A stretch of 45,564 nt of DNA from contig JBLFXH010000003.1 of NCBI GenBank assembly GCA_047611125.1, positions 1-45,564 of the forward strand, read 5' to 3'. The notes beneath the pieces are model-generated. The model did no database searches, was not told the DNA's origin, and worked only from the letters and a program-made list of their open reading frames with translations. This DNA is from Rhodothermales bacterium. GTDB lineage: Bacteria > Bacteroidota > Rhodothermia > Rhodothermales > UBA10348. This document shows, in pieces, positions 14,181-42,572 of the stretch. Within the stretch, counting starts at the first letter, position 1; the number at the start of each line of letters is the position of its first letter. A program made the position numbers and the translations under genes.

Positions 14181-15224
14181 CTAACGTCCCGCCCAGACCA
14201 TCCGGCCATCCCGGTCGATGTACGCCTCCCTTCCCCCATCGACCACTCGGGCCAATGGACCGTGGAACGATGAGGCGACCTCGAACCGGGGCTGAATCAA
14301 AAAGGCACCGGCCGTGTCGATATATCCCCATAGTCCTCCCATCCGGACGGTAGCCCGACCTCCTGAGAAGTCTTTCGCAGCCTCGAATTGAAGCCCAATC
14401 ACGAGCTCTCCAGTACGGTCCACAAATCCAGTCAGCCGCTGATCACCGACACGCGCGAGCCCCTCGGAAAACGAGTAAGCCGCCGGGTAGGGGAGCGTGA
14501 GCTCAACCTCTCCACGGGCATTCAGGTAGCTGGCCGCGCCTCTGTCCGATACCAGCGCAAGACCCTCCGAGAAGGTGCGGACGCTCGTGTAGGTAGCTGG
14601 AATCACCCACGCGCCTGTGGAATTGGCGTACCCCCAGCGTTTCTCCAGTCGGATGAAGAGCAGTTTTCGATACTTCTCTGCCGGGATGAGGCCTTCGGAG
14701 GGACGAAAGACGCCGTCCAAGACCGGACCACTGAGCTCCAGCCCTTCGTCTGACAAAACGCCCCAGAGGCCGGGTTGCCCGCGCGGAGTCGTGTCGGCTC
14801 CTGCCTGATACCCGGCAAGTCCGTCTCCAAGCGGGGTCATGTCTTCATAGGCCCTTTCGGTGATCTGAGCACCAGACTCATCGATGAGAATCCAGCCCGG
14901 CTCCGCGCGAACGCGTGCCACCCCGCCTGTAAACAAATCAGCTTCGCGGAAAGAAGGCTGAATCACCCACACCCCCTCCGGATTCAGGTAGCCCCAGCGC
15001 CCCCCCAAGCGCGCCGGCCCGAGCTGCCCGGAGAACGCCTTGAGCGCCTCGAACGGGCCAGCATCTACCTGCTCTCCGGCGGCAGTGATCATCCCGACTC
15101 CCCCCTGAACGCGAACCGGATAGCGCCAAGTCTCCGATGCCTGCCCGAGTGCGGACACAGGGAGCACCAGTGCCACCAACAAACCTACGGCCGCCACCTT
15201 CCCCGGCACGTTCATCCAACCCAT
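14181..15224 (-). CDS. Secreted WG-repeat protein
   Basis: Signal peptide (..VSALG-Q); repeated WGY(L/I)(N/D)xxG.WVI.P and FSEGLA units. Confidence 0.88.
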   Translation of the reverse strand: MGWMNVPGKVAAVGLLVALVLPVSALGQASETWRYPVRVQGGVGMITAAGEQVDAGPFEALKAFSGQLGPARLGGRWGYLNPEGVWVIQPSFREADLFTGGVARVRAEPGWILIDESGAQITERAYEDMTPLGDGLAGYQAGADTTPRGQPGLWGVLSDEGLELSGPVLDGVFRPSEGLIPAEKYRKLLFIRLEKRWGYANSTGAWVIPATYTSVRTFSEGLALVSDRGAASYLNARGEVELTLPYPAAYSFSEGLARVGDQRLTGFVDRTGELVIGLQFEAAKDFSGGRATVRMGGLWGYIDTAGAFLIQPRFEVASSFHGPLARVVDGGREAYIDRDGRMVWAGR

Positions 15225-29534: not shown

Positions 29535-31205
29535 CTAGGGCAGCCGGTACGTCACAGCCGTCCGAAAGAACAGGTCCGGGATTCCGGCGACTGTCACTCC
29601 GACGTCAATCCGATCCAGCAGCGTATATCTGCGCGCCAGCGCCATCCCGGTAGGCGTGGTGCCGTCCAATAATCGGAACAGATCCGCCTGAATGTTGCGC
29701 TCTACACCGGTGGCGATTCCCGATCCGGAGGCCACGCCCCCTCCAATCGAATAATGGGGATCCGAATAGCCGGTGACGCCTCCCAGCGCCTGGAACAGCA
29801 GGCCGTCCAAATCCAGAAAGGCGAGTCTTAGGGGAAGCAGGAGCCAACCCGCGCCCTTGATTCGATCTGGGAAACGGAAGTCGAGTCCCGCCCGAATTTC
29901 GTAGTCCAGAGCCTTCCCCACTCTGAATGTCTTGGGTGTGCCGGAGTCTGAGCCGTACGTGCCTTCAACAGACAACTCACCTTGATAAAGGACGTAGTTG
30001 GTCGTGAACGTATGCGGCCCCAGCCCCAGATCCACACCGAACGTCAGGTGACTGGGCTGACGAAAAACCATCGCCGTGCCAAGACTGTCCGAGGTTGGTC
30101 GCGTCAGGTTGGGTTTCGCCAAGTTGAGCGCTTCCACGTCCAGCAGTTCGTCTTCGTGGGGACCCGGGGCTACTTCCCCAGACAGATTGACGAAGATGGG
30201 CAGATGACCCTCCGCGAAGGCGGCAGGGTCATTCATAGTCAGGTCCTGTGACCAGTTGCCGGCAATGGAGAGCACCAGAACCTCATCAGGCGTGGCAAAG
30301 CGTAGACCACCTCGAGCCCCCCAGGCCCGTCCGCGGTAGTGGCCGCGGGCACGCCAATAGAGTGTGTTGCTCTCTCCCGGCGCCAGGTTGGGGTCGGACG
30401 GGTCGTTGTAGAAGTACTGTTGACTCCCACTCAGCACGGTCATAAGACCGGGCTGAAAACTCCAGTTCATGTTCGCGTGGGCAGACCGCCTGAGGATGGA
30501 GAAGCCGGCGTGCCAGGAGCCCAGGTCATCGGTCCCTAGATGGATTCCGGTACCCAACGCAAGCTGATCCAGGTCTAGGCTAAACTCGGCTGCGGCGCTG
30601 AGCTGCGCAAGAATGTCAATATCGATGGTTTGGGCGCCGCTTCGGCGGCCGGCATCCAGTACAGTCTCGAGGCCTGACATGCGCAGGCCTGCAGAGGCTG
30701 ACGCCCGCCGGTGGTAGCCTCCGGCCAGCGTGAAACCGGAAGCGAGTTCATGGGCCACCACGAGCGCGCCAAGTTGACCAGACTGGCCCGCCGTAATTCC
30801 GCTCAGCGCGGTGTATTGGGGGACCGAGGTCGATGCAAAATCAAAGTCAGACAGAAAGTCATCGGTGGCGGTCTGCACGCGCTCCGCTGAGAGCAGTGCC
30901 TCCTTCCCGAACCCGAACGATGCGTTGGTAAGCCCAGTCCGTCCCTCGATAGCGAACCCGGTAGTGCCGCCGAGGGCCAGGAGCGCAGGGTTGGAGAAGA
31001 GGCTACCCGGTCCTGACGAATGCCGGGCCGACCAAACTGGCCCCAGAGACCGTGCTCCGGGTGCTCCCGACTGGATTCCCAGTCGCCAGTCGCTCTCCAG
31101 AATTCCGCCGGACCAGGACCCGATTCGGAAGTCCTCGTTGCCGGATTGGGCGAAGACGCCCGCGGTCATCAAGAACGAACTTGCTATGAGCACGAAATTG
31201 CGCAT
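29535..31205 (-). CDS. Outer-membrane beta-barrel protein, FadL/PorV-like N-terminal motif, unknown function
   Basis: Signal peptide (VFA-Q); GARSLG...SLFSNPALLA resembles the FadL/PorV hatch motif; alternating beta-strand patterns; C-terminal strand FRTAVTYRLP. Confidence 0.6.
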   Translation of the reverse strand: MRNFVLIASSFLMTAGVFAQSGNEDFRIGSWSGGILESDWRLGIQSGAPGARSLGPVWSARHSSGPGSLFSNPALLALGGTTGFAIEGRTGLTNASFGFGKEALLSAERVQTATDDFLSDFDFASTSVPQYTALSGITAGQSGQLGALVVAHELASGFTLAGGYHRRASASAGLRMSGLETVLDAGRRSGAQTIDIDILAQLSAAAEFSLDLDQLALGTGIHLGTDDLGSWHAGFSILRRSAHANMNWSFQPGLMTVLSGSQQYFYNDPSDPNLAPGESNTLYWRARGHYRGRAWGARGGLRFATPDEVLVLSIAGNWSQDLTMNDPAAFAEGHLPIFVNLSGEVAPGPHEDELLDVEALNLAKPNLTRPTSDSLGTAMVFRQPSHLTFGVDLGLGPHTFTTNYVLYQGELSVEGTYGSDSGTPKTFRVGKALDYEIRAGLDFRFPDRIKGAGWLLLPLRLAFLDLDGLLFQALGGVTGYSDPHYSIGGGVASGSGIATGVERNIQADLFRLLDGTTPTGMALARRYTLLDRIDVGVTVAGIPDLFFRTAVTYRLP

Positions 31206-32194
31206 CAGAACGCCACCCGCAGGGCTACCTGTTGGCTCGTACCTAGGAAAGAATCCGCGTAGGCGTAATCGGCCGCAAGCGTCACCCCGGCAACGGCAGG
31301 CAGGCGCAGGCCGAATCCGAGCGTGAGGCGTTCGTCAGACTGACCATTGAGCGAACGTTCGGTCCCCACCCGAAGTGCGAGCATCTCGGCGAGTGTGACC
31401 TGGAGTCCGACTCGGACTCGTTCATCCAATTCATCGTTCAGCGCTGGGACGTAGTCCAGGAGAATCAACCCTTGGCGGCCCGCAGGAATCTGGCCACCAA
31501 CCACCACGAGCAGGGGCAGTCCCTCGTTGTAGCTAGATGTCACACTCCCCGACGCGGTACCCGAATTCCACTGAATCAGCGAAGCCAGATTTCGCACATT
31601 TATGCCAATGGCGCCTCGTCCAGCGGCGTATCGAAGGCCAATTCCGCCCGTGACGCCGGTGGCATCGCCGTTAATCTGATTGGCCATGCCCTGCGCGATC
31701 TCAATCGGATCGAAGACTAATAGCGCATCTGGGTTGATCTGGTTACGTCCGAATCGGGAGAGAAGGAGGGCACCTGAGAATCCCATAGAGAATCGCCCGA
31801 ATCGGCGGGCCAAGGCCATCTGAACCACTGTCTCCCGCATGGCGTCATCACCGGAATCCCGGAAGTGGAGGCCCATTCCCCATCCGCTGCGCGTGCTGAA
31901 TCCAAGTCCGAATTGCCCGTGCTCCAGGAGATCGTACTGCTGGAGATAGCTGAACGAGAATTGGACCTGGTCCAACGCTGCAGCCGAGGCCGGATTTGAC
32001 CAAACGGCCTCGAGACCCGAGTCTGAGGCTACGCCGGCCTGGCCGAGCGCTGCGAGACGGGGTCCTGGACCAGCGTCAAGAAACGCTGCGGGAATGGAGC
32101 TGAGTGGTTGTGCCCTCGCAGTGGACAGTGGGACCGCCAACGCGACAACAAGAAGGATGAGCACAGCCTCCCAGACAGGAAGCTTATCGAACAC
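31205..32194 (-). CDS. PorV/PorQ-family outer-membrane beta-barrel
   Basis: Signal peptide (ARA-Q); AAFLDAGPGPRLAALGQAGVA...AVWSNPASAA; terminal DYAY...LGTSQQVALRVAF ending in Phe. Confidence 0.8.
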   Translation of the reverse strand: MFDKLPVWEAVLILLVVALAVPLSTARAQPLSSIPAAFLDAGPGPRLAALGQAGVASDSGLEAVWSNPASAAALDQVQFSFSYLQQYDLLEHGQFGLGFSTRSGWGMGLHFRDSGDDAMRETVVQMALARRFGRFSMGFSGALLLSRFGRNQINPDALLVFDPIEIAQGMANQINGDATGVTGGIGLRYAAGRGAIGINVRNLASLIQWNSGTASGSVTSSYNEGLPLLVVVGGQIPAGRQGLILLDYVPALNDELDERVRVGLQVTLAEMLALRVGTERSLNGQSDERLTLGFGLRLPAVAGVTLAADYAYADSFLGTSQQVALRVAF

Positions 32195-32221
32195 GGGTGT
32201 GGTTGGCTGGAGGCCGGGTAT

Positions 32222-35200
32222 CTACTTAACGAGTACGGCGGAAATCTGCGCAGTCGTTGTGCCACTCGTGTCGCTGGCCTCGATCCTGATGATGTAGCGG
32301 CCGTTTCTGGCTCGCGTCCCGCCATCGGTTGTCCCGTCCCACAGGATTTCGCGACGCGAGGTGCCGGAGCCGTATCTCCCGGGCTCCTGGAGTTCAGACT
32401 GGAGGATGGTCTTCACCAATTGGGCCTGCATGTTGAAGACCCGAATCGTCACCGAGGCGGAAGGCTCCTGGCTAGTAAGCAAATAGCCAATCCGCAGTGG
32501 CGCCACGTTTGGAGAAAACGGTGACGGCAGGACTGCCACATTTCGGAGTCCCAGCGTCTCGTTGGTGGCCAGTATCGCGAACTCGGTCAAATGGCGAACC
32601 GAAGGCGAGACGAACGCGCCCCCGCTGTCCTCGGTCTTCAGTAGACGCCAGCGCAGGCGATCCGTCTCGAAACGGGCCATCACCCGCTCACCCTGAAAGA
32701 GCGCGAGCGAAGGGTCCGCGGATAACTGAACGGACGCGTCACCCAAGAGGGAGTCTCCCGGCAGGGCTCGGTCGGACCTCATTGAGAACCGAACGAGCGC
32801 ATCGCCTACGGTCAGTCTTTGGGACCCGCTGGAGGCATTGCGTTTCGGGCCAATCAGCGGTGGATAAGACAGTCCGATTTCGGAGGCGAACGGAATGGCT
32901 CCGCCCGGCAGTGACAACTCTCCACCCCTTGCTCCTCGAAGGAAGGCTGGTTCGCCTGACAGGAGATCCCGGTAGAGGGAGAGCGTGGTAAAGGCGGATT
33001 TTTCGGAAATAGGATCAGTGACGTCAAGCCGGATAGGACCAATGAGAGAGCGGTCGCCGGGAACGAAGACACCGCTTTCCGTCACTCGTCCTGCACTCGG
33101 TGGCGAGACGCTCCAGGAAAGGCCGTTGCCCAGCAACTGCTGGGAGCCGTCCTCGAGCCTGGCCCGATAGTTCATCTGAATTCCCGGGCCCGAGTTGCTG
33201 ACCGAGGGCAGAGGCGAGGCCAGGGTGAGTGCAGACAGAGGCTCCGCCTGAACCTGAAAGTCGGCCACGAATGTGAAGTCCGCAGCTCCTAACGTGGCCG
33301 TTACTTCTAGTCTCACAGCCTCTGCCTCCTGAACCGTCAGTAGCGCCTCGGTGGGATTGGACGGATCCGGAAAAACCAGGCTTGCGTGGTCTCCTCCCAG
33401 CGCCCACGTCATCTTGCCTTCCGTCCCGCCCAAGAACCGGGCACGCAGGTCTGTTCCGATACCGTCCAACAGAACGGCGCGCACCTGGTACGTATCTCCG
33501 GCGCGAAGCCGGCTCCCGGCTAGGGCAGGCTCGATGCGAAGGGTGGCGAGTTTTCCGGGAGTTTGGGGTATGAGAGTGATCGGTGCAGAAGCGTACCCGA
33601 GGCCAGTGCCTCCATCGGTGACGCTCATCTCGTAGATGATGGACTCCGCCCCGTTCGCCGCAGGCAGAGTAGCCTTCAGGTAGCCTCCCGAGGCAATAAG
33701 CGGGAGCGACTCGCTTGCCCCGCGAAGCGTATAGGTCAAGGTCCCAGAGACTGAAGTGAGGTCGTGCCCGTCAGTAGCTAAAACCAAGATCTCTGTCTCC
33801 TGAATGGAGGACACTACGCCGGCTGGGACATGGCGGTAGGGGAGTGCCAACGACACCGTCAGCTCATCTGAGTCACCTGTGAGTGTTGGCTCAAGCGAGG
33901 GGCCAGACGGGCCGAGATACCCCTGCTTAACTACGTCCAGGCGGTATGGCCCGGCTCCCAGCGTGGCCGGTGTTTCGAACAGCCCCTCCACATCAGTGAA
34001 GCCCTCTACCAGTCGGCCACCGGAGCTCTCCACCGTGACCTGCGCCGCATCGATGGGGAGCAGCCCGTCCGTCAGCGACACCGTGATGCGGCCGGACGGC
34101 AGCGCGATGTCGTCCAGGGTCACCACCTGTCCGAGTCGCTCTCCAGGTATACGGACCGTCCGGATGACTGGGGGCCCCTCGTCGGGGAGCACGGAAAGAG
34201 TATAGACGGTGGTATCCGGAGCCGGGACGTCCAGTGGCATGGCCGGGAATATGAACGCGCCCTGCGCGTCGGTTACCGTCTCCAAGAGCGAACGTGCTTG
34301 TGCTCGAACCAATACGCCGGGCGTGCCGGCTCCTCGGTAGACCACCCGCCCCTGGAGAAGTACGGTCGCGGGCCGGAGTGAGAACGCCAGACCCTCGCGC
34401 GCCTCGCCCTCGGCGAGCACAACCTGCTGCTCGCCCATCCGAAAACCCTGGGCGGTCGCGGTCAGGTTGTAAAGTCCGCCGGGGAGCTGCTCAAGCGTGT
34501 AGGCACCTGCAACAGACTCGGTCTGGTAGACAATGCCAGTGGTTCCTTCGACTGCGGTGACCTGTCCGTCCAAACTGGTCCCAGTCTCGCTTCGCACTGT
34601 TCCGGAAATTTGGCCGGTGGCCTCGGCCAGGGTGAACTCCAGGGTCAGGATGGCTGAGCCTTCCAAGAGAACGGTTGCGGCTGGAGGCGTGCTTGAGAAT
34701 CCAGCGAGTGACGGACGCACCGTGTAAGTGCGCAGCAGAGGCAGGCCCTCAAAGGTGAAAACCCCTGCGATGTCGGTTCTCCCGGGTCGGACAACGAGAC
34801 CGTCCTCACTGGATAGCACCACATCAACCGCGGACATGGGCTGACGCAGCACGTTGAGAAGCTGGACCCGGATCGTGCCCACCTGTGCCACGGCCGTAAA
34901 ACTTGCGGTTCCAGATCCGCCCTGGGCCACAACCACGGACCGGAAGGCAGGACTGAAGGACACGCCTTCCTTCTCGGGGACAACACGGTAGCCTCCCGAG
35001 GCCAGCAGCGCGAATGCGTACCCGCCATCAGTCAGCGATGAGGTGATGCCTCGAACCTCCCCGGACGTGCCATCCAATAGCCTAACCGTTGCCCGTGGGA
35101 AGCCCGCATTTCCGCCGATCTCGGCGGTGTTGACGGCTACGATCAAAGCCACATCTGCCACATCCGTGACGCCGTCACTAAAAGCAGCGGTATTCGAGCC

Positions 35201-38200
35201 ATTGACATAACCGGGCCGGTTGATCTCGGTCCGGAGCGTCCAGGAAGCCCCTGGATCGAGCCCGGTGACGGTGTAATTCCCGTTGTCGCCCGATGTGACT
35301 GTAACCACGCGGCCGCCGCCTGATGCCACAACGCGAACGGGAAAGCCCAGAGGGGCTCCCGATTTGTCGATCACCACACCCAGGATCCGCCCGTCCGAGG
35401 CGGCTAGCTCCACGTCCAGAACGCCACCCTCGGCAATCGTAACGCTTTGAACCAGCTTGCGAAAGCCTGATTGGAGGATCTCCATTTCATATAGGCCAGT
35501 TGCCAGCGCGCTGAAACTGTACTGACCGAGGTCGTTGCTCTCGGTGCTCGCAGCGCCAGGCTCCCCCACGAGTGTGACCTGGACACCGGCAAGTGCACGA
35601 CCATCGGCGGCGCTGGTCACCAGCCCCGTCAACGACCCGAGGCGCGGCAATAGGACAACGTCGCCCAACGCTGTGACGGCCCCGTCGCTCACGGAAACGT
35701 TCGGGATGGTCAGTGCGGCGTAGCCGGCCCTTGCAATGGAGACCGTGGATGAACCGGACATCAGCCCCATCAACTCGAATTGCCCAGAATTGGAGGAGAG
35801 GGTGAGCGACTCCAGACCATTGGAGGAACCCGTAATGACTGCCCCCGGAATCGAAGCATTGCTAGTGTCCAAGACCCGGCCCGTAATGCTGCCGGTGGCC
35901 GAGGCCAGAACAGCCGGGTGGTCCCGGGTCTCGCCTTGACCCAGCGTGATGGCCGCGTCCTGCAACGGAGTGAATCCGGGGGCTTGAACGAGTAATTCGT
36001 AGGTCCCTGGGGCCAAGTTGGTATATCGAATCTGGCCCAACAGATCGGAGGAGCTGGTGAACCGAATGGAACCCGATCTCAGGTCACCCGCCGCGCCTTG
36101 AATGGGCGTGCCTTCACTGGTCTGAACGGTGACGATCAGCTGACCGGAAACGGTAGTCAGTTGAAAATCCACGCCTGATCGTTGCTCGCCGAGCGCCAGT
36201 GTGACAGATCTGCTCGTTGTTGCGTACCCGGCTAGCGATGCCTGGACCTCGCGGGTGCCGGGGTCCAGGAAGAGGGTGTAGGCCCCATCAAATTGCGAGG
36301 TTGCCGAGGCCGCGCCCGAAGCTACCGTCACGCCGGCCAGTGGGACCCCACTCGCGTGCCGAGCAACTCCGCTCAAGGACGAAGAGCCGGGGAGCAGTTC
36401 GACCGTCGTGGTGCGCGTCTCCCGTATCCCGAGCGATGACTGAGTGTTTTGGTAGGGCCTGAAGCCAACGGCCATCACCGCCACATCCAGAAGTGCTCCC
36501 GGCTGGACTGGCAGCGCAAACTGACCATCGGCTCGGACCACCGTGAATCGATCGAGCTGCCCTCCCATCACTGACACGACTGCCGCGCCCACAGGCTTGC
36601 CGGCCGACGTCACCACGCCTCTCAGCGTGGTTTCCGCGGCAATCAGATCCGCGTCCAAGCCCTGCAGCGCCTGTCCGGCCAAGAGCGTCCGAAGCAGAGG
36701 CGCGGAAGATTCATGCCCCTCGGCCCCCATGCGGACAGACCAGCTGCCGGGGGATAGACCTACGCTATACCGGCCGAATTGGTCAGTGCGCGAGGTGATG
36801 GACTGCTGGGTCGTGGTTGCTACAACAGTCGCAAAGGGTATGGTGGCGCCCGCCCGAGTGACGACGCCACTGACAGTCGAGGCCGCCGGAACCAGGATTA
36901 CTTGTAGCCCGCTCAGCTGGGAGGACAATCCGAAATTGACGGCCTTGGACCCATGTCCCGCGGCCGAGGCAACGAACTCGTGAACCCCGTCCGTCAGCGC
37001 CAGATCGAATCGGCCGTCAGGGCTGGCCGTGACCCGACGAGGGAACGCCGAATAGGGACCCAACAGTAAGGTGGCTCCGCCGACAGCCAGTCCGGCCGGA
37101 TCCACCACGCGGCCGGTAACCCGACCCTCTGCGGCCACGAGGTTCATATCGAGGCCGGAAACGGACTCTGCGTAGCCAACCCGCAGGGCTGCCGGGCTGG
37201 CATCCATGAACCCATCCGCGCGAGCAGTCACGAAGTAGCTTCCTGCCCCGACGTCAAGAATGAACTGGCCATTGTTATCTGCAACGGTAGTGAGCACCGG
37301 GCCGGCGTAAGGCCGGGCAATCACCAGGGCTCCCGCCAGAGAGCGGCGCTCGCGAACACCGTCCGAACCGGTGCTCACGCCGAAAACGCTGCCCGACACT
37401 TGGCTGGCCTGCTCCGTTAAGACCACCGTGACATTCGTCTGGTGCTCTGCGGTTGATACCTGAACTTGTACCGGCTGCCCACCCAGGAACCCGGCCTTGG
37501 ACGCAGTCAGCGTCCACGATCCTGCGGCCAGCGTGAAGTCGAAACCACCCTGGCCGTCGGTGGTGTACCGCTGCGAACTGGATCCGAAACTGGCGACAAC
37601 TGTGGCCAACTGGACAGGCTGACCGTCTTCGTTGACCACACGACCAGAGACGAATCCCGCGATGGCCTCCAGGATCAGATCAGGAGCGTCGACCTGCTCA
37701 TTCGGCTCGACTTGAAGGCGCTCGATTTCGTCGGTGGCGAATCCGTCCTTCGTGCCGCGGATTGAGTAGGTGCCGGGCGGAACGCTGACAGACCAACGCC
37801 CTTCTGAGTCGGTTAGGGTCTGACGGATCGGATCGTCCCCGCGAAGAACGGCCACGGCTGCGTTTTCAAGAAGCCCCGCACTGTCGTCCAGAACCAGGCC
37901 CGAGACGCGCGCCGGCAATGGGCGCATCCCCAGCACAAACTCGTTGAGTTGATTGGCACTGATTGTGATCGCGTACGTCGTATCGGCATACTGGTCGCGA
38001 CTTGCATGGAACAGGTAACGTCCGGTCACCAGGCTGTCGCGATAAGACTCGGTCGAGTTCACCAACGGGACAATCGGCGCATGCCGGCCGTCCAGATTCT
38101 CCACTTCGACACGGACTCCGAGGATGGCTGTGTCGTCGGCAGTAGACCGCGGTCGAAAGCGAAATTGTCCCATCGGGACTTCGTAAGAGAAGGCGCGATT

Positions 38201-39298
38201 CGAGGACAGGCCGGCCGCTCCGTCGGCCTCATTCGGGATCACGGACCACGTGTAGGTACCGCGCCTCATGAGACGGGATGCGTCCAGCGTGATCTCTGTC
38301 GATGGCGTCGTGGTGGTAAATACCGGCACGTCGCCGATCGAGCCGCCAATCACCTGGCGTTCTGTCAAGGTAAACGTGTAGCTGGCGGCGTCAATCACCG
38401 GCTCCCAGGCGAATCGAATAGATGCGTCTCCCAGGAATCGGGTGCCCTCTCTTGGGGTGATCAGGTTCGGCGGGAGCAGCCCGGTAAAGGCGTCATACCG
38501 GAAGGCCACGACACCACCAAAGGCTTCCGAGATCAAGGCCAGGTCAGACTTGCTGTAGGTGTTGACTACCGTGAAGTAGTACTCACGGCCAGGCTCCAGA
38601 GGTGGCGCAGGTAGGTTGGGAAAAGGACTGTCTTGCGAGGCCTGCCCGTACCGGGCCGATGTCTCTGTGGTCAAGGCGCCCCAGACCGGAGTCAGCCCTT
38701 CGACAACGGGATCGTTCGTTTGGGGATCGGTCCGCAACTCAAAGGGCGTGCTGGAGACCGCCAGGACGTAGGCTGCCACACCGGGAATCCCCTCCCATTC
38801 AAAGGTCGGAGTGGACGAGAAAATGGTACCTCTCGGCCCTAGAATCGTCGGCGCGACCGGCGACTCAACCACAAGCAGAAAGTCCTGGGAGAACACGATG
38901 GAGCGGTCTGAATTCGCCGCGTTACGGATATCCCGGTAGGTCTGCTGGGTGGGCGCGTTGGTAATGTTGGCGTGGTAGACGCCAACAGCAAGGCCGAGTT
39001 GGTTGGGCGTAAACTCCACCGACGTGAGATCAGACACGGAGATGGAAACCCTCGCGTAGGTCCCCGGCGAATCACCGATCTTTAGCTGCATGCCCGGCGC
39101 CGCGGGTGTCCAGTTGAGTTGCGCCGTCTCGGCGGGACGGAAGAGCGCGGAGGCAAAGGTACCATCTCCGTCCACGAGCCGGGGCGGCGAGACCGCCACG
39201 GTCTGGGCAAACGCCGAGCAGGTGCACAGCAACATGGCCACCCCCCAGAACGGGGATCGTCTCAAAAGGCCGGGCTCTATGGGTCGAATACAGTACAC
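32222..39298 (-). CDS. Giant secreted surface protein: FN3-like domains, ~17 carboxypeptidase-regulatory-like (CnaB-type) repeats, Ig-like domains, ZU5/GAIN-like domain, FlgD-Ig/T9SS-type CTD
   Basis: 2358 aa; signal peptide (AFA-Q); repeated (V/I)(S/T)G.V....G..(V/L)..A.V...T...G.(F/Y)....PG.Y...A...GF units; C-terminal PSPFSPN...VTIRVFNMQAQLVKTI...WDGTTDGG...NGRYIIRIEA...VLVK. Confidence 0.88.
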   Translation of the reverse strand: MYCIRPIEPGLLRRSPFWGVAMLLCTCSAFAQTVAVSPPRLVDGDGTFASALFRPAETAQLNWTPAAPGMQLKIGDSPGTYARVSISVSDLTSVEFTPNQLGLAVGVYHANITNAPTQQTYRDIRNAANSDRSIVFSQDFLLVVESPVAPTILGPRGTIFSSTPTFEWEGIPGVAAYVLAVSSTPFELRTDPQTNDPVVEGLTPVWGALTTETSARYGQASQDSPFPNLPAPPLEPGREYYFTVVNTYSKSDLALISEAFGGVVAFRYDAFTGLLPPNLITPREGTRFLGDASIRFAWEPVIDAASYTFTLTERQVIGGSIGDVPVFTTTTPSTEITLDASRLMRRGTYTWSVIPNEADGAAGLSSNRAFSYEVPMGQFRFRPRSTADDTAILGVRVEVENLDGRHAPIVPLVNSTESYRDSLVTGRYLFHASRDQYADTTYAITISANQLNEFVLGMRPLPARVSGLVLDDSAGLLENAAVAVLRGDDPIRQTLTDSEGRWSVSVPPGTYSIRGTKDGFATDEIERLQVEPNEQVDAPDLILEAIAGFVSGRVVNEDGQPVQLATVVASFGSSSQRYTTDGQGGFDFTLAAGSWTLTASKAGFLGGQPVQVQVSTAEHQTNVTVVLTEQASQVSGSVFGVSTGSDGVRERRSLAGALVIARPYAGPVLTTVADNNGQFILDVGAGSYFVTARADGFMDASPAALRVGYAESVSGLDMNLVAAEGRVTGRVVDPAGLAVGGATLLLGPYSAFPRRVTASPDGRFDLALTDGVHEFVASAAGHGSKAVNFGLSSQLSGLQVILVPAASTVSGVVTRAGATIPFATVVATTTQQSITSRTDQFGRYSVGLSPGSWSVRMGAEGHESSAPLLRTLLAGQALQGLDADLIAAETTLRGVVTSAGKPVGAAVVSVMGGQLDRFTVVRADGQFALPVQPGALLDVAVMAVGFRPYQNTQSSLGIRETRTTTVELLPGSSSLSGVARHASGVPLAGVTVASGAASATSQFDGAYTLFLDPGTREVQASLAGYATTSRSVTLALGEQRSGVDFQLTTVSGQLIVTVQTSEGTPIQGAAGDLRSGSIRFTSSSDLLGQIRYTNLAPGTYELLVQAPGFTPLQDAAITLGQGETRDHPAVLASATGSITGRVLDTSNASIPGAVITGSSNGLESLTLSSNSGQFELMGLMSGSSTVSIARAGYAALTIPNVSVSDGAVTALGDVVLLPRLGSLTGLVTSAADGRALAGVQVTLVGEPGAASTESNDLGQYSFSALATGLYEMEILQSGFRKLVQSVTIAEGGVLDVELAASDGRILGVVIDKSGAPLGFPVRVVASGGGRVVTVTSGDNGNYTVTGLDPGASWTLRTEINRPGYVNGSNTAAFSDGVTDVADVALIVAVNTAEIGGNAGFPRATVRLLDGTSGEVRGITSSLTDGGYAFALLASGGYRVVPEKEGVSFSPAFRSVVVAQGGSGTASFTAVAQVGTIRVQLLNVLRQPMSAVDVVLSSEDGLVVRPGRTDIAGVFTFEGLPLLRTYTVRPSLAGFSSTPPAATVLLEGSAILTLEFTLAEATGQISGTVRSETGTSLDGQVTAVEGTTGIVYQTESVAGAYTLEQLPGGLYNLTATAQGFRMGEQQVVLAEGEAREGLAFSLRPATVLLQGRVVYRGAGTPGVLVRAQARSLLETVTDAQGAFIFPAMPLDVPAPDTTVYTLSVLPDEGPPVIRTVRIPGERLGQVVTLDDIALPSGRITVSLTDGLLPIDAAQVTVESSGGRLVEGFTDVEGLFETPATLGAGPYRLDVVKQGYLGPSGPSLEPTLTGDSDELTVSLALPYRHVPAGVVSSIQETEILVLATDGHDLTSVSGTLTYTLRGASESLPLIASGGYLKATLPAANGAESIIYEMSVTDGGTGLGYASAPITLIPQTPGKLATLRIEPALAGSRLRAGDTYQVRAVLLDGIGTDLRARFLGGTEGKMTWALGGDHASLVFPDPSNPTEALLTVQEAEAVRLEVTATLGAADFTFVADFQVQAEPLSALTLASPLPSVSNSGPGIQMNYRARLEDGSQQLLGNGLSWSVSPPSAGRVTESGVFVPGDRSLIGPIRLDVTDPISEKSAFTTLSLYRDLLSGEPAFLRGARGGELSLPGGAIPFASEIGLSYPPLIGPKRNASSGSQRLTVGDALVRFSMRSDRALPGDSLLGDASVQLSADPSLALFQGERVMARFETDRLRWRLLKTEDSGGAFVSPSVRHLTEFAILATNETLGLRNVAVLPSPFSPNVAPLRIGYLLTSQEPSASVTIRVFNMQAQLVKTILQSELQEPGRYGSGTSRREILWDGTTDGGTRARNGRYIIRIEASDTSGTTTAQISAVLVK
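33836..38170 (-). repeat. Tandem array of ~17 diverged ~85-aa CnaB/carboxypeptidase-regulatory-like protein repeats
   Basis: Counted by eye from GQFRFRPRST to VSLALPY; recognisable at protein level only, with no obvious DNA identity. Confidence 0.8.
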
Positions 39299-39356: not shown

Positions 39357-40325
39357 TCAGCCGTCCTCGCGGAGAATCACCACGCGGCTTCGTACACGGG
39401 TCAGCGAGCCGAATAGGCCGTGGCCGTCGTTGACCCCTGCCTTGACGTTTGGGATCTCGCCCGGCGCGAATCCACCATTCCCCTCCTGCGCGTTGACGTA
39501 GCGGAAGTGGTTCCAGACGTTGTCGTCGATGGCGCTCACAGTGATCTCTTGCGGGCCGTAGAACGCGGCGAAGAACCAAGGCATTTTGAGCCGAATGCTC
39601 GCGTCCGGATTGACCTGCCAGTTGGCTTCATTCAGCGGAGGTGAAGACTGGAGGATTACCTCGCTTAGTTCCTCCGGATCTAGCGTTGAAGGGTCGAATT
39701 CCTCGTCGGCACCGATCGAAAAAAGGATATCGCGCAGGAACGGCGTCAGTCCATCGATGGATGGATCGAGACTCTCCATCGAGATGATATACACCGCATC
39801 ACGCCCCGGGTACACGCTTGCCGAGACGTCAATCTCTATCTGCTCGGTGGACTGATAGACCACCTCGCGTACGGGCTCGCCCACGATATCAAAGCCCCCC
39901 GGAACAATGGTTCTGGCAGCGAGGGTCGGATATCCGGGCACATCGGCCGTGAGTTGGTACGTGGCCCCGGCCACGACTCTTGACTGAAAGCCTGAGCCAG
40001 TCTCGTCGGAAAACAGCGGCAGGTAGAGCCCGTCCGCAGCTTCTACGTCTGAGGGGACGTCGATTGGTGCGTAGGTGAAGCGTCGCTCGGGGAGTCCGGG
40101 CGAAGCCAACTGTGTAATCGTCACCGTGGCCGCACCAACGCCGACCGGCACACTTCCGTACTGGGTTTCAACACTCTGCGTCCAGGTGAGTCGGACGGGC
40201 GGGATGGTTTCGCCAGCTATCAGCCAGGCCTCGATGACGGGCTGCGGTTGGTGTATCCCCGGGTCCCCGAAATCACAGGCAGAGAAGGCGAATGCCGCGA
40301 GCGTTATGGCAACTATGCGTTTCAT
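39357..40325 (-). CDS. DUF4249-family outer-membrane lipoprotein
   Basis: Lipobox AFSAC; PVIEAWLIAGE, VRLTWT, C-terminal NV..GVNDGHGLFGS; directly downstream of a TonB receptor. Confidence 0.75.
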   Translation of the reverse strand: MKRIVAITLAAFAFSACDFGDPGIHQPQPVIEAWLIAGETIPPVRLTWTQSVETQYGSVPVGVGAATVTITQLASPGLPERRFTYAPIDVPSDVEAADGLYLPLFSDETGSGFQSRVVAGATYQLTADVPGYPTLAARTIVPGGFDIVGEPVREVVYQSTEQIEIDVSASVYPGRDAVYIISMESLDPSIDGLTPFLRDILFSIGADEEFDPSTLDPEELSEVILQSSPPLNEANWQVNPDASIRLKMPWFFAAFYGPQEITVSAIDDNVWNHFRYVNAQEGNGGFAPGEIPNVKAGVNDGHGLFGSLTRVRSRVVILREDG

Positions 40326-40328
40326 CAA

Positions 40329-42572
40329 TTAGAAGGTCAGCGTGAACGCGATGTTGGGGATCGGGACGGGAATCTGCGGGACCGTGGTCTGCTCGACCGT
40401 TCCGTCATCGTTGAACTCAAAGAACCTGAACCAGATGTTCTTGCGGGCATAGACGTTGAGCAGTTGCAGCTGCAGCTCGTAGTCAGCAAAACCGAAGAAG
40501 CGGTTGCTCTTGGTGAACCCGACATCCAGCCGGTGATACGCCGGGAGGCGCGCACCCTGAAATCGACTGATCTGGGCCGTCTGGATGACGTTGTCCACCG
40601 GCGAGTCTACCAGACGATAGTAGGAGACCGGCTCCGTGTAGGCCTGCCCGGTGGCGTAAATGAAGGCTGTGGTGACCTTCCACGTCTTCCCCAGCCTGAA
40701 GTTGGCGATGGCGTTCACGTCATGCAGGCGGTCATACTTGGGGGCGTAGGGCGCTCCTTCATTCAGGTTGGGGAACGTCCGGTTGGTCTCGCCGAGCGTA
40801 TAGCCCAACATCCCGGTGACGCCGCCGCGCGTTTTTTCAACCAGGACTTCGATGCCCGACGCATCGCCCTTTCCGAAGTGGAACAGCTCCGAATAGTCCA
40901 GGCCGGCCGCGTCCAATAGAAACGGGTCAAGCTGAAACAGACCACGCATGGTGCGATAGTAGGCCTCGACCTCCAGACTCCAGCCCTCCCAGTGCGAGGA
41001 CTTGATGCCGGTCACGAACTGGTCACCGTAGGCCGGTGGGACCCCATCGTCCGTGGTGAGCCAGACATCTAGTCCGGTGAACACCTCATTGCTGATCAGC
41101 GTCAGGAACTGGGAGTACCGTCCGTACGCGGCCTGGAGTCGAAGGTCGGCGGTCGGGCGATGCTCTATCGAGATCCGGGGCTCCAGCCTGAGGTAATTGC
41201 CCTCGCCAAACCACGAGGCACGGAGTCCGCCGGTGATTTCTGTCCGAGAGCCGGGTCGATACCGCTGCTGGCCGTAGACGGACAGATAGGGCGCCTGAAT
41301 GCGCTGGTTGAGGGACTCCTCGCCGTCGAACAGGTCCTTCAGACGCATGGTGAACATCCCACCCCAGAAGCCTCCCTTGAAGGCCAGTTTGTCATTCGGG
41401 ACGTACTCCAGATCACCGCGCGCCGAGAAGTCGTTAACCGTGTTGTTGCGCGAGATGCGCGTCCCTCCAATCGTTAGGTCGGGCTGACTCGAATAGCGCG
41501 AGGCCGTGAACGTGAAGTTGGAGAAGACCTGGTCACTAAACAGGTGAGTCCAGTTCACACTCCCCGTGCGGTTGCCGTAGGCCAGATCGATGGTTGTCAG
41601 CGCCAGGGGCTCGATCCCAACGTCATCGCGTCCGGTGTAGCCCGCTATGGACACCTTGTCATCCGGTCCAAGGTCAAGACTCACCTTCGCGTTGATGTCG
41701 TAGAAATAGAAGTTGGACGGAATGCCGTCAATGTCCTGATTCCTGAGTGCAGCCAGGACGGGCTCCAGCGTCGAACGCCTAACCGCCAGCATAAAGGAGC
41801 CGAGCTTGTGCGGCCCCTCGACCATGGCCCGACTGGCCAGGATTCCCAAGCTCAGTCTTCCGGCATACCGATTCCGGTTACCGTCCTTGTTGTAGACGTC
41901 CACCACAGACCCAATTCGGCCGCCATACTCGGCCGGAAAGCCTCCCTTGTATAGTCTGACGTCCTTGACGGCGTCCGGATTGAAAGTGGAAAAAAAGCCG
42001 AAGACGTGAGTCGGATTGTAGACCGTGGTGTGATCCAGCAGAATCAGGGTCTGATCTGGGCTCCCCCCCCGGATGTATAGCCCGCTTGAATAGTCCGAGG
42101 CGGCCTTGACGCCAGGGAGCAATTGCAGTGACCTGAAGACGTCCGGCTCAAGGATGGTGGGCAGCGACCGGATCGTGGCCGTGGTCATCCGGCTTACCCC
42201 GATGCGCCCATCCTCCAGGCCTTCGCGCTCTCCAGAAACGATCACCTCATCTACCATCAGACCGATGGGTATGAGTTCGACGTTCAACCGGCGCTCTTCA
42301 CCCGCTCCAAGCGTGACTTCCAGGACAGCCGTTTCGTACCCGATATAGGAGGCCAAGACCTGATAGGATCCGGCCGGGATCCCCGACACCACGTAGTAGC
42401 CTGACGTATTGGTGGCTGCTCCCAAAGAGGTCTCCGCCAGGACGAGATTGGCCAGAATCAGGGTCTCTCCTGTATCCGCGTCCCGGATAAAACCGCTGAG
42501 CGTGGCCGCGTTTTGCGCGGTCACAGGAAGGACAAGGCACATGACCGCGACGGCGGCCAAGAGGTATCTCAT
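40329..42572 (-). CDS. TonB-dependent outer-membrane receptor with N-terminal carboxypeptidase-like extension
   Basis: TLSGFIRDADTGETL; plug LQLLPGV..GLYIRGGSPDQTLILLD..YNPTH; YKGGFPAEYGGR; LPAYHRLDVG; C-terminal Phe. Confidence 0.93.
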   Translation of the reverse strand: MRYLLAAVAVMCLVLPVTAQNAATLSGFIRDADTGETLILANLVLAETSLGAATNTSGYYVVSGIPAGSYQVLASYIGYETAVLEVTLGAGEERRLNVELIPIGLMVDEVIVSGEREGLEDGRIGVSRMTTATIRSLPTILEPDVFRSLQLLPGVKAASDYSSGLYIRGGSPDQTLILLDHTTVYNPTHVFGFFSTFNPDAVKDVRLYKGGFPAEYGGRIGSVVDVYNKDGNRNRYAGRLSLGILASRAMVEGPHKLGSFMLAVRRSTLEPVLAALRNQDIDGIPSNFYFYDINAKVSLDLGPDDKVSIAGYTGRDDVGIEPLALTTIDLAYGNRTGSVNWTHLFSDQVFSNFTFTASRYSSQPDLTIGGTRISRNNTVNDFSARGDLEYVPNDKLAFKGGFWGGMFTMRLKDLFDGEESLNQRIQAPYLSVYGQQRYRPGSRTEITGGLRASWFGEGNYLRLEPRISIEHRPTADLRLQAAYGRYSQFLTLISNEVFTGLDVWLTTDDGVPPAYGDQFVTGIKSSHWEGWSLEVEAYYRTMRGLFQLDPFLLDAAGLDYSELFHFGKGDASGIEVLVEKTRGGVTGMLGYTLGETNRTFPNLNEGAPYAPKYDRLHDVNAIANFRLGKTWKVTTAFIYATGQAYTEPVSYYRLVDSPVDNVIQTAQISRFQGARLPAYHRLDVGFTKSNRFFGFADYELQLQLLNVYARKNIWFRFFEFNDDGTVEQTTVPQIPVPIPNIAFTLTF

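Follow-up and report, generated by a model that had tools for sequence, protein, structure and literature searches.

A conserved gene trio encoding a giant secreted protein and two outer membrane barrels in Rhodothermales: a possible type IX secretion cargo with its own barrel partners

Three consecutive genes on the reverse strand of a contig from a Rhodothermales bacterium (Bacteroidota; Rhodothermia; Rhodothermales; UBA10348) were found to form a conserved operon-like gene module, which encodes a giant secreted protein and two outer membrane beta-barrel proteins. The window analysed is the stretch of 45,564 nucleotides at positions 1 to 45,564 of the forward strand of contig JBLFXH010000003.1 (assembly GCA_047611125.1). 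The giant protein, P0001 (32222..39298, - strand; 2358 amino acids (aa), GTG start, TAG stop included), ends in a C-terminal domain (CTD) with the fold of the PorU and PorZ CTDs in the secretion system of type IX (T9SS). It is followed by P0002 (31205..32194, - strand; 329 aa, GTG start), a divergent barrel of the PorV/PorQ family with a signal peptide, and by P0003 (29535..31205, - strand; 556 aa, ATG start), a barrel with a FadL/PorV/BamG-like fold whose family has no annotation. By analogy with known pairs of a barrel and a CTD protein, the two barrels may be a dedicated partner of the giant, probably an anchor, which would hold it on the cell surface through a retained CTD. We would give this reading an even chance of being correct.

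The arrangement of the trio was established from the open reading frame (ORF) listing and its translations. The TAG of the giant's gene is followed after exactly 27 bases by the GTG of the P0002 gene, and the TGA of the latter shares one A with the ATG of the P0003 gene in a TGATG overlap at 31205 (ttcTGATGcgc). The gene order, the 27-bp gap and the coupling of the barrel genes, all pointed out in an initial annotation made from the letters of the window, were thus borne out. Of 401 genomes sampled across the phylum, 25, the source genome among them, encode a full-length homolog of P0003, and these belonged to seven families (15 genomes in f15, four in f1, two in f33 and one each in f14, f20, f29 and f42). 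Another 63 "matching" genomes were set aside, their matches being weak, N-terminal and on other barrel frames of about 350 aa. Among the matching genomes, several (for example G136, G268, G356, G236, G184, G109 and G213) consist of one closed contig. The long-flank set consisted of 20 loci, 16 from the genome scan and four from the genome-contig scan. In every one of them, the P0003-like gene has a P0002-like gene as its immediate upstream neighbour, and a giant-type protein with the same CTD was encoded directly upstream of the P0002-like gene in 19; the contig of the twentieth ends inside the P0002-like gene. Among the short-flank loci, the start motif of the CTD was found in 24 of 25. The trio, which the initial annotation had put forward as a candidate dedicated module, is therefore syntenic across the seven families and intact in all but one of the long-flank loci.

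The synteny argument rests on distant loci with differing flanks. In the f15 loci, no gene for a TonB-dependent receptor (TBDR) was found upstream of the trio, and the trio stands alone there, because the genes just upstream lie on the opposite strand. A same-strand pair of a TBDR gene and a DUF4249-sized gene was found upstream only in the source locus and in L013, L014, L015, L060 and L061, the loci concerned being those of close relatives and one further locus; the DUF4249 identity was confirmed with Pfam for the source locus, L014 and L015 only. A metagenome scan with P0061 yielded one Latescibacterota-type contig (L072, 4945 bases) with a distant relative of the 556-aa barrel. It carries fliS upstream of the barrel gene, no PorV-like gene upstream, and downstream a gene for a CarboxypepD_reg protein that runs off the contig, and it is too scant to extend the module beyond the phylum. 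Literature searches on type IX secretion with PorV/PorQ paralogs, on FlgD-type C-terminal domains and on Rhodothermus/Salinibacter PorV gave no paper on the trio, other wordings not being covered.

The link between the giant and the barrels that we propose depends on the CTD (residues 2248-2358; 32225..32557, - strand), which was delimited with an AlphaFold2 model, its structural matches and hidden Markov models (HMMs). The C-terminal 246 residues of the giant (2113-2358), folded by AlphaFold2 from an alignment of 20 orthologs, gave two domains with a predicted local distance difference test (pLDDT) score of 92.6, and the model was compared by VIA with 48,161 representative PDB chains. The CTD part, a beta-sandwich at model residues 136-246, had the PorU CTD as its best match (6za2_B, residues 1055-1157; Z 12.2, root-mean-square deviation (rmsd) 2.2, 98 aa, 18% identity) and matched the PorZ CTD (5m11_A, residues 685-776) with Z 10.2. 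With sequence models, the CTD scored 25.8 bits against Pfam FlgD_ig (E 1e-5), slightly under the cut-off of 27, and 23.1 bits against the PorU model NF033707 at positions 989-1088, and a PDB sequence search with the C-terminal profile returned weak FlgD Ig-like matches only (E 0.004-0.7). P0001 gave no match at E <= 0.1 to the type A (TIGR04183) or type B (TIGR04131) CTD models. The motifs PSPFSPN and WDG..NGRY, noticed in the initial annotation, are present in the last ~110 residues of the giant (...LPSPFSPN...WDG...NGRY...VLVK); of the two resemblances read from them, that to FlgD_ig was upheld just below the cut-off and that to type B CTDs was not. A type B CTD served by a PorP/SprF barrel was also considered as a reading of the locus and was rejected, its HMM support being nil. 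No other part of the giant is conserved as well as the CTD, which has 43-53% identity to distant orthologs. When its profile was run against its own genome, the giant alone gave a strong match and the CTD of PorU came next (E 1.4e-5); in this genome, no other protein has a CTD of this type.

By structure, the CTD thus belongs to the PorU/PorZ-like kind. In Porphyromonas, the CTD of PorU stays bound to PorV and that of PorZ to PorQ. In passages of PMC10947112, the CTDs of both PorU and PorZ are described as staying uncleaved and PorZ as being anchored by PorQ. By analogy, the CTD of the giant may likewise be retained after export.

The CTD also bears on another role for the barrels. They could be export helpers, with P0002, alone or together with P0003, serving the very large cargo as its own shuttle, or as an adaptor to the translocon, for passage through SprA, and the CTD being removed later as PorU releases the protein or links it to lipid. 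SprF is needed for the export of SprB, and PorV for that of type A cargo. Synteny, single-copy barrels and the uniqueness of the CTD fit such a role equally well, PorU is present in the genome, and both the description of PorV as a shuttle (PMC5562754, in part) and the use of adjacent PorP-like barrels by type B cargo (PMC9143113, in part) speak for it. However, the CTD model is nearest to two known uncleaved CTDs and not to a cleaved cargo CTD, and this CTD is missed by TIGR04183, a model that marks cargo processed by PorU and that finds other proteins of the same genome. We therefore regard a role confined to export as rather unlikely, and we keep to the two barrels as a partner and probable anchor in what follows.

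The first barrel, P0002, scored 61.7 bits (E 8.5e-17) against the NCBIfam model PorV_fam (NF033709), whose cut-off is 90. Because this score is significant but below the cut-off, P0002 was taken as a divergent relative and not as a curated member of PorV/PorQ. The profile of its family (22 members) found PorV (6h3i_F) as its best PDB sequence match, with E 7e-6. Neither P0002 nor P0003 matched Pfam PorP_SprF (PF11751) at E <= 0.1; the ortholog of P0002 in L018 scored 18.1 bits against this model (E 0.002; cut-off 22.3). The NPA motif known from the hatch region of FadL is present in both barrels, each of which is single-copy in the genome. The product recorded for the P0002 gene in the protein collection (P0146) has 256 aa, or 78% of the 329-aa ORF. 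Since the orthologs of P0002 are 319-333 aa long and the longer, GTG-started ORF carries a signal peptide, the recorded start is probably too late.

The second barrel, P0003, had no match in Pfam (Toluene_X, PF03349, included) or NCBIfam, and its assignment comes from an AlphaFold2 model built on a 65-sequence alignment (pLDDT 91.3, predicted template modelling score 0.85). Its fold matches were tied among a FadL homologue (3dwo, Z 24.6), FadL-type 1t16 (Z 23.2, 348 aligned residues), BamG-like chains of Bacteroidota BAM complexes (9n2d_B, 9hjm_F and 9hj3_F, Z 22.7-24.5), PorV (Z 23.1) and TodX (3brz, Z 23.0). Several strands of the model are at least 30 residues long, and on this ground the barrel is predicted to have a tall extracellular extension. 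Near the N-terminus, the NPA of a FadL-type hatch is formed by N72, which hardly varies in the family, and by P73 and A74, which show no variation or next to none. An hhalign comparison of the P0003 and P0002 families gave 97% probability (E 7e-11), and by their sequence profiles the two families are distant paralogs. The initial description of the pair as PorV/FadL-like barrels was accordingly sustained, for P0002 by HMM and profile, with its score under the curated cut-off, and for P0003 by fold. A profile search of 1.84 billion representatives with P0003 collected only 133 clusters with E values up to 1e-3, of which 40 stayed at or below 1e-30. Among the relatives of P0003, P0047 passed Pfam Toluene_X (34.3 bits, cut-off 29.7), and P0020 and P0055 remained below the cut-off.

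These results raise the question of whether the barrels serve as channels of the FadL type in a nutrient-uptake locus, taking up a small substrate, hydrophobic or not, which the giant would capture at the surface together with the TBDR and the DUF4249 protein encoded upstream. The FadL and TodX transporters among the best fold matches of P0003, the Toluene_X match of P0047 and the NPA hatch motif kept in both barrels agree with such a function, as does the fact that other PorV_fam paralogs of this genome also adjoin TBDR genes. However, PorV and the BamG-like chains score as high as FadL against P0003, the sequence affinity of P0002 is to PorV/PorQ, and Pfam gives no enzymatic domain in the giant and none known to bind a ligand. 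The TBDR and DUF4249 genes, moreover, are outside the conserved core and are not upstream in the f15 loci. Uptake is accordingly a very unlikely function of the trio in our judgment.

In the surface-anchor reading, the trio would make use of the T9SS of the cell. The source genome, which is 91% complete, encodes SprA (1967.5 bits), PorU (953.5 bits), PorV (344 bits) adjoining PorU, PorQ (229.2 bits, cut-off 220) and a PorV2-like protein. SprA and PorU were also found in all five other trio-bearing genomes tested, PorU being over its cut-off in four of them. In part of PMC5053529, Rhodothermus marinus and Salinibacter ruber are listed among the CTD-positive species. Of the core genes to which the initial annotation had pointed, sprA was thus present and porK/L/M/N were not found with the available models.

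Several findings count against the surface-anchor reading. No match to the GldM, GldL and GldM_1st models was obtained in the source genome at its 91% completeness, and the only GldK match was partial and weak (37.6 bits). The GldM model TIGR03517 scored above its cut-off in no sampled Rhodothermia genome, closed ones with SprA and PorU included; one weak partial match of 36 bits was seen, whereas the Bacteroidia families were matched over the full length. Because no sampled Rhodothermia genome passes, the models may be too narrow, and we treat this result as a limit of the models and not as absence: either PorM is very divergent in Rhodothermia or the motor is a different one. The motor and ring of the T9SS are, in any case, undocumented here. 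The best family scores of the CTD (FlgD_ig) and of P0002 (PorV_fam) both fall short of their cut-offs, and the CTD is missed by the type A and type B models alike. Part of the conservation of the trio is simple collinearity, because close relatives share wider synteny; in L013-L015, genes for an S8 peptidase, a primase and polyphosphate kinase follow downstream. Finally, we know of no system that uses two barrels for one CTD protein, and for this reason the role that we assign to P0003 is a guess.

A prediction of the complex of P0002 (residues 29-329), P0003 (residues 20-556) and the CTD partner gave scores of 0.85, 0.80 and 0.90. The controls in which the partner was replaced scored 0.00 and 0.00, and the control in which an unrelated protein took the place of P0003 scored 0.92, so that the required mark was missed. 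With three chains, the chain left unchanged may be the source of the score, and the prediction was not used as evidence either way; any binding of the CTD by the barrels is proposed here from analogy.

Between the Ig-like domains and the CTD, the giant carries a beta-sandwich of the GAIN-B/ZU5-like fold (residues 2113-2247; 32558..32962, - strand), identified in the AlphaFold2 model and by its structural matches. It matched subdomain B of the CD97 GAIN domain with Z 10.3 (124 aa, rmsd 2.9) and the CELSR1 GAIN domain with Z 9.3, and ankyrin ZU5 domains with Z 9.9-10.2, i.e., GAIN and ZU5 are tied. No match to Pfam GAIN, GPS or ZU5 was found in the giant at E <= 0.1. GAIN domains self-cleave at the turn before the last strand. 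The turn preceding the last strand of the domain, which in the model is the site equivalent to the GPS, reads H2236-L2237-T2238 (32585..32593, - strand) and occupies model residues 124-126, between the strands at 116-122 and 127-133. A preprint by Brogan and Rudner (10.64898/2026.05.12.724683) describes bacterial GAIN-like "MAIN" domains with H-x-S/T that self-cleave at this turn. They typically lie between passenger domains and a surface anchor, and the anchors are mostly sortase, cell-wall-binding or SLH domains; neither "T9SS" nor "type IX" occurs in its main text.

We therefore considered whether the trio displays a passenger that is released by force, the GAIN-like domain self-cleaving as a rule, with its last strand and the CTD staying in the barrels and the passenger being shed under shear. 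The fold, the H-L-T at the turn that precedes the last strand, the H-L-S at the same place in a same-genus genome and the precedent of the self-cleaving MAIN domains between passenger and anchor would all suit this mode of display. However, among 27 orthologs with a readable turn, H-x-S/T was found in only three, namely, in the source genome (H-L-T), in L013 (H-L-T) and in the same-genus genome (H-L-S). At the nucleophile position, four other orthologs have Ala, one reads R-I-S and has no His, and all others have Gly; the missing Pfam matches to GAIN, GPS and ZU5 point the same way. GPS-like cleavage as a conserved trait was accordingly rejected by the ortholog alignment, and release as the general mode of this family appears improbable to us. 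Since H-x-S/T is confined to three of the 27 orthologs, release would be lineage-specific at best, and since most orthologs have no such motif, the conserved role of the GAIN-like domain is probably structural. The cleavable version may have arisen inside this genus; the exchange of T for S with the His retained is suggestive and is no proof. What the initial annotation had called a self-cleaving, releasable module is therefore kept in its first half, as a GAIN/ZU5-like fold with H-L-T before the CTD, and not as a conserved property of release.

Under the surface-anchor reading, the giant would be exported by Sec and then pass through the SprA translocon, directed by its CTD. P0002 would receive the CTD and hold it in the outer membrane, by analogy with PorQ and PorZ, and P0003, the translationally coupled larger paralog with its FadL-like fold and very long predicted hairpins, might be the second subunit of the same anchor. 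The expected outcome is a long surface fibre of approximately constant length, in which some 15 transthyretin-like repeats carry a conserved tip at the N-terminus. Just before the CTD, the GAIN/ZU5-like domain would mainly be a structural joint; in this genome and two close relatives, H-x-S/T may permit self-cleavage and force-dependent shedding. In a bolder form of this scheme, which we hold to be a long shot, the PorQ-like barrel and the tall FadL-like barrel would form a heterodimer that grips the uncleaved CTD, and in the H-x-S/T clade, to which this genome belongs, the GAIN-like joint would self-cleave, leaving the fibre of ~2200 residues held only by one beta-strand until it is shed under mechanical load. 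If true, a mechanical fuse would have newly arisen on a surface fibre that is otherwise permanent, and the trio would be the counterpart in diderms of adhesion G protein-coupled receptors and of MAIN proteins anchored by sortase.

From its N- to its C-terminus, P0001 consists of a signal peptide, a conserved beta-rich N-terminal region, about 15 CarboxypepD_reg repeats, Ig-like domains, the GAIN/ZU5-like domain and the CTD. The predicted signal peptide (residues 1-31, ...LLCTCSAFA/QT; 39206..39298, - strand) was read by eye from the translation. The N-terminal region (residues 32-465; 37904..39205, - strand) matched no Pfam family at E <= 0.05, and an Atlas feature search with its 434 aa gave generic CarboxypepD_reg/fn3-like leads only (best 0.91), with recognition under the usual mark. 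Within the passenger, the CTD aside, conservation is highest in this region: residues 101-300 have 40-42% identity to distant orthologs, compared with 22-35% for the repeats. The array of CarboxypepD_reg (transthyretin-like) repeats, with the approximate limits of residues ~466-1825 (33824..37903, - strand), was assigned with Pfam (E 9e-130; 15 stretches, the best ones within residues 486-1686), and the ortholog alignment places the end of the last repeat near residue 1825. It is followed by three Ig-like domains (residues ~1826-2112; 32963..33823, - strand), which were delimited with the ortholog alignment and appear Big_2-like by eye, a type taken from the sequence pattern alone. The length of the giant is nearly constant: 17 of the 19 loci have colinear frames between 2381 and 2460 aa long, and of the remaining two, one encodes a 616-aa version and one is split at the contig start. 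The 616-aa ortholog (L014:7101-8951, and the same-genus genome G376, L023) has lost every CarboxypepD_reg repeat; what remains of the protein are its Ig domains, GAIN-like domain and CTD, and the two barrel genes are still present at its locus. Judging by its domain types, the giant is a candidate adhesin.

Upstream of the trio in the window, and outside its conserved core, lie the genes for the DUF4249 protein (39357..40328, - strand; 323 aa, Pfam DUF4249 36.5 bits) and the short TBDR-like protein (40329..42572, - strand; 747 aa), the latter with Pfam CarboxypepD_reg and Plug and no barrel-domain match among its Pfam families. Scans for promoters and terminators found sites no commoner than in shuffled sequence. 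A gene elsewhere in the window (14181-15224, - strand), which has no relation to the trio, encodes a 347-aa protein of WG_beta_rep repeats (Pfam E 2e-49).

The genome encodes at least eight PorV_fam paralogs over the cut-off. Several of these lie in gene clusters that also encode a TBDR, one or two proteins with a type A CTD and a large protein without annotation (contigs C100, C4, C46, C248 and C52; L065-L068 and L071). On contig C4, the type A CTD proteins include an alpha-amylase with a CTD, and on contig C52 a CTD-like protein of 519 aa is followed by two PorV-like genes. This suggests that there are cargo-specific PorV paralogs in nutrient loci. Because genomes of this group have many PorV-family paralogs that adjoin particular cargo genes, cargo-specific sorting at the outer membrane may be common.

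Dedicated barrels are already known for single T9SS substrates, namely, PorP/SprF barrels for type B cargo and PorQ for PorZ. What the trio adds is a CTD of this type paired with a divergent PorV-like barrel, as a third kind of CTD/barrel pairing, together with a second, unannotated family of FadL-superfamily barrels (556 aa; 133 clusters) and a conserved giant cargo with a GAIN-like joint, in a module spread outside the well-studied Bacteroidia. The closest counterpart is the attachment complex of Porphyromonas gingivalis with its PorQ-PorZ and PorV-PorU pairs, in which a PorV-family barrel likewise goes with a CTD of the PorU/PorZ fold; the retention of the CTD would be shared by analogy. 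The complex is described, in part of PMC10947112, as including two PorV-family barrels, which is a further likeness to the trio. In contrast to it, the trio has one CTD protein for two barrels, and its genes are adjacent and translationally coupled. Its cargo is a repeat fibre of ~2400 aa and not a sortase or a lipopolysaccharide-delivery protein, its second barrel, of 556 aa, is from an unannotated family, and the canonical PorV, PorU and PorQ are encoded elsewhere in the genome.

The trio also resembles SprB-SprF and other type B pairs (PMC9143113, in part), in which the gene for a surface protein of great size, rich in repeats, adjoins that for a dedicated barrel needed for its secretion or anchorage. 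It differs from them in that the CTD of the giant misses TIGR04131 and both barrels miss PorP_SprF at E <= 0.1. With FadL, TodX and BamG, P0003 has in common the barrel fold (Z 22.7-24.6) and the conserved NPA near the N-terminus, but it is ~130 residues longer, with predicted strands of at least 30 residues, and does not match Toluene_X; its genomic partner is a T9SS cargo and not a set of genes for fatty-acid or aromatic catabolism. The MAIN proteins (10.64898/2026.05.12.724683, in part) share with the giant a signal peptide, adhesion-type repeats, a GAIN-like sandwich, a surface anchor and the H-x-S/T turn. The anchor of the giant, however, would consist of a T9SS CTD and outer membrane barrels, and most of its orthologs are without the catalytic residues. 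The orthologs of the giant thus form a natural series in which the GAIN-like joint occurs with or without the self-cleavage triad, so that the effect of autoproteolysis on a surface fibre could be compared between close relatives.

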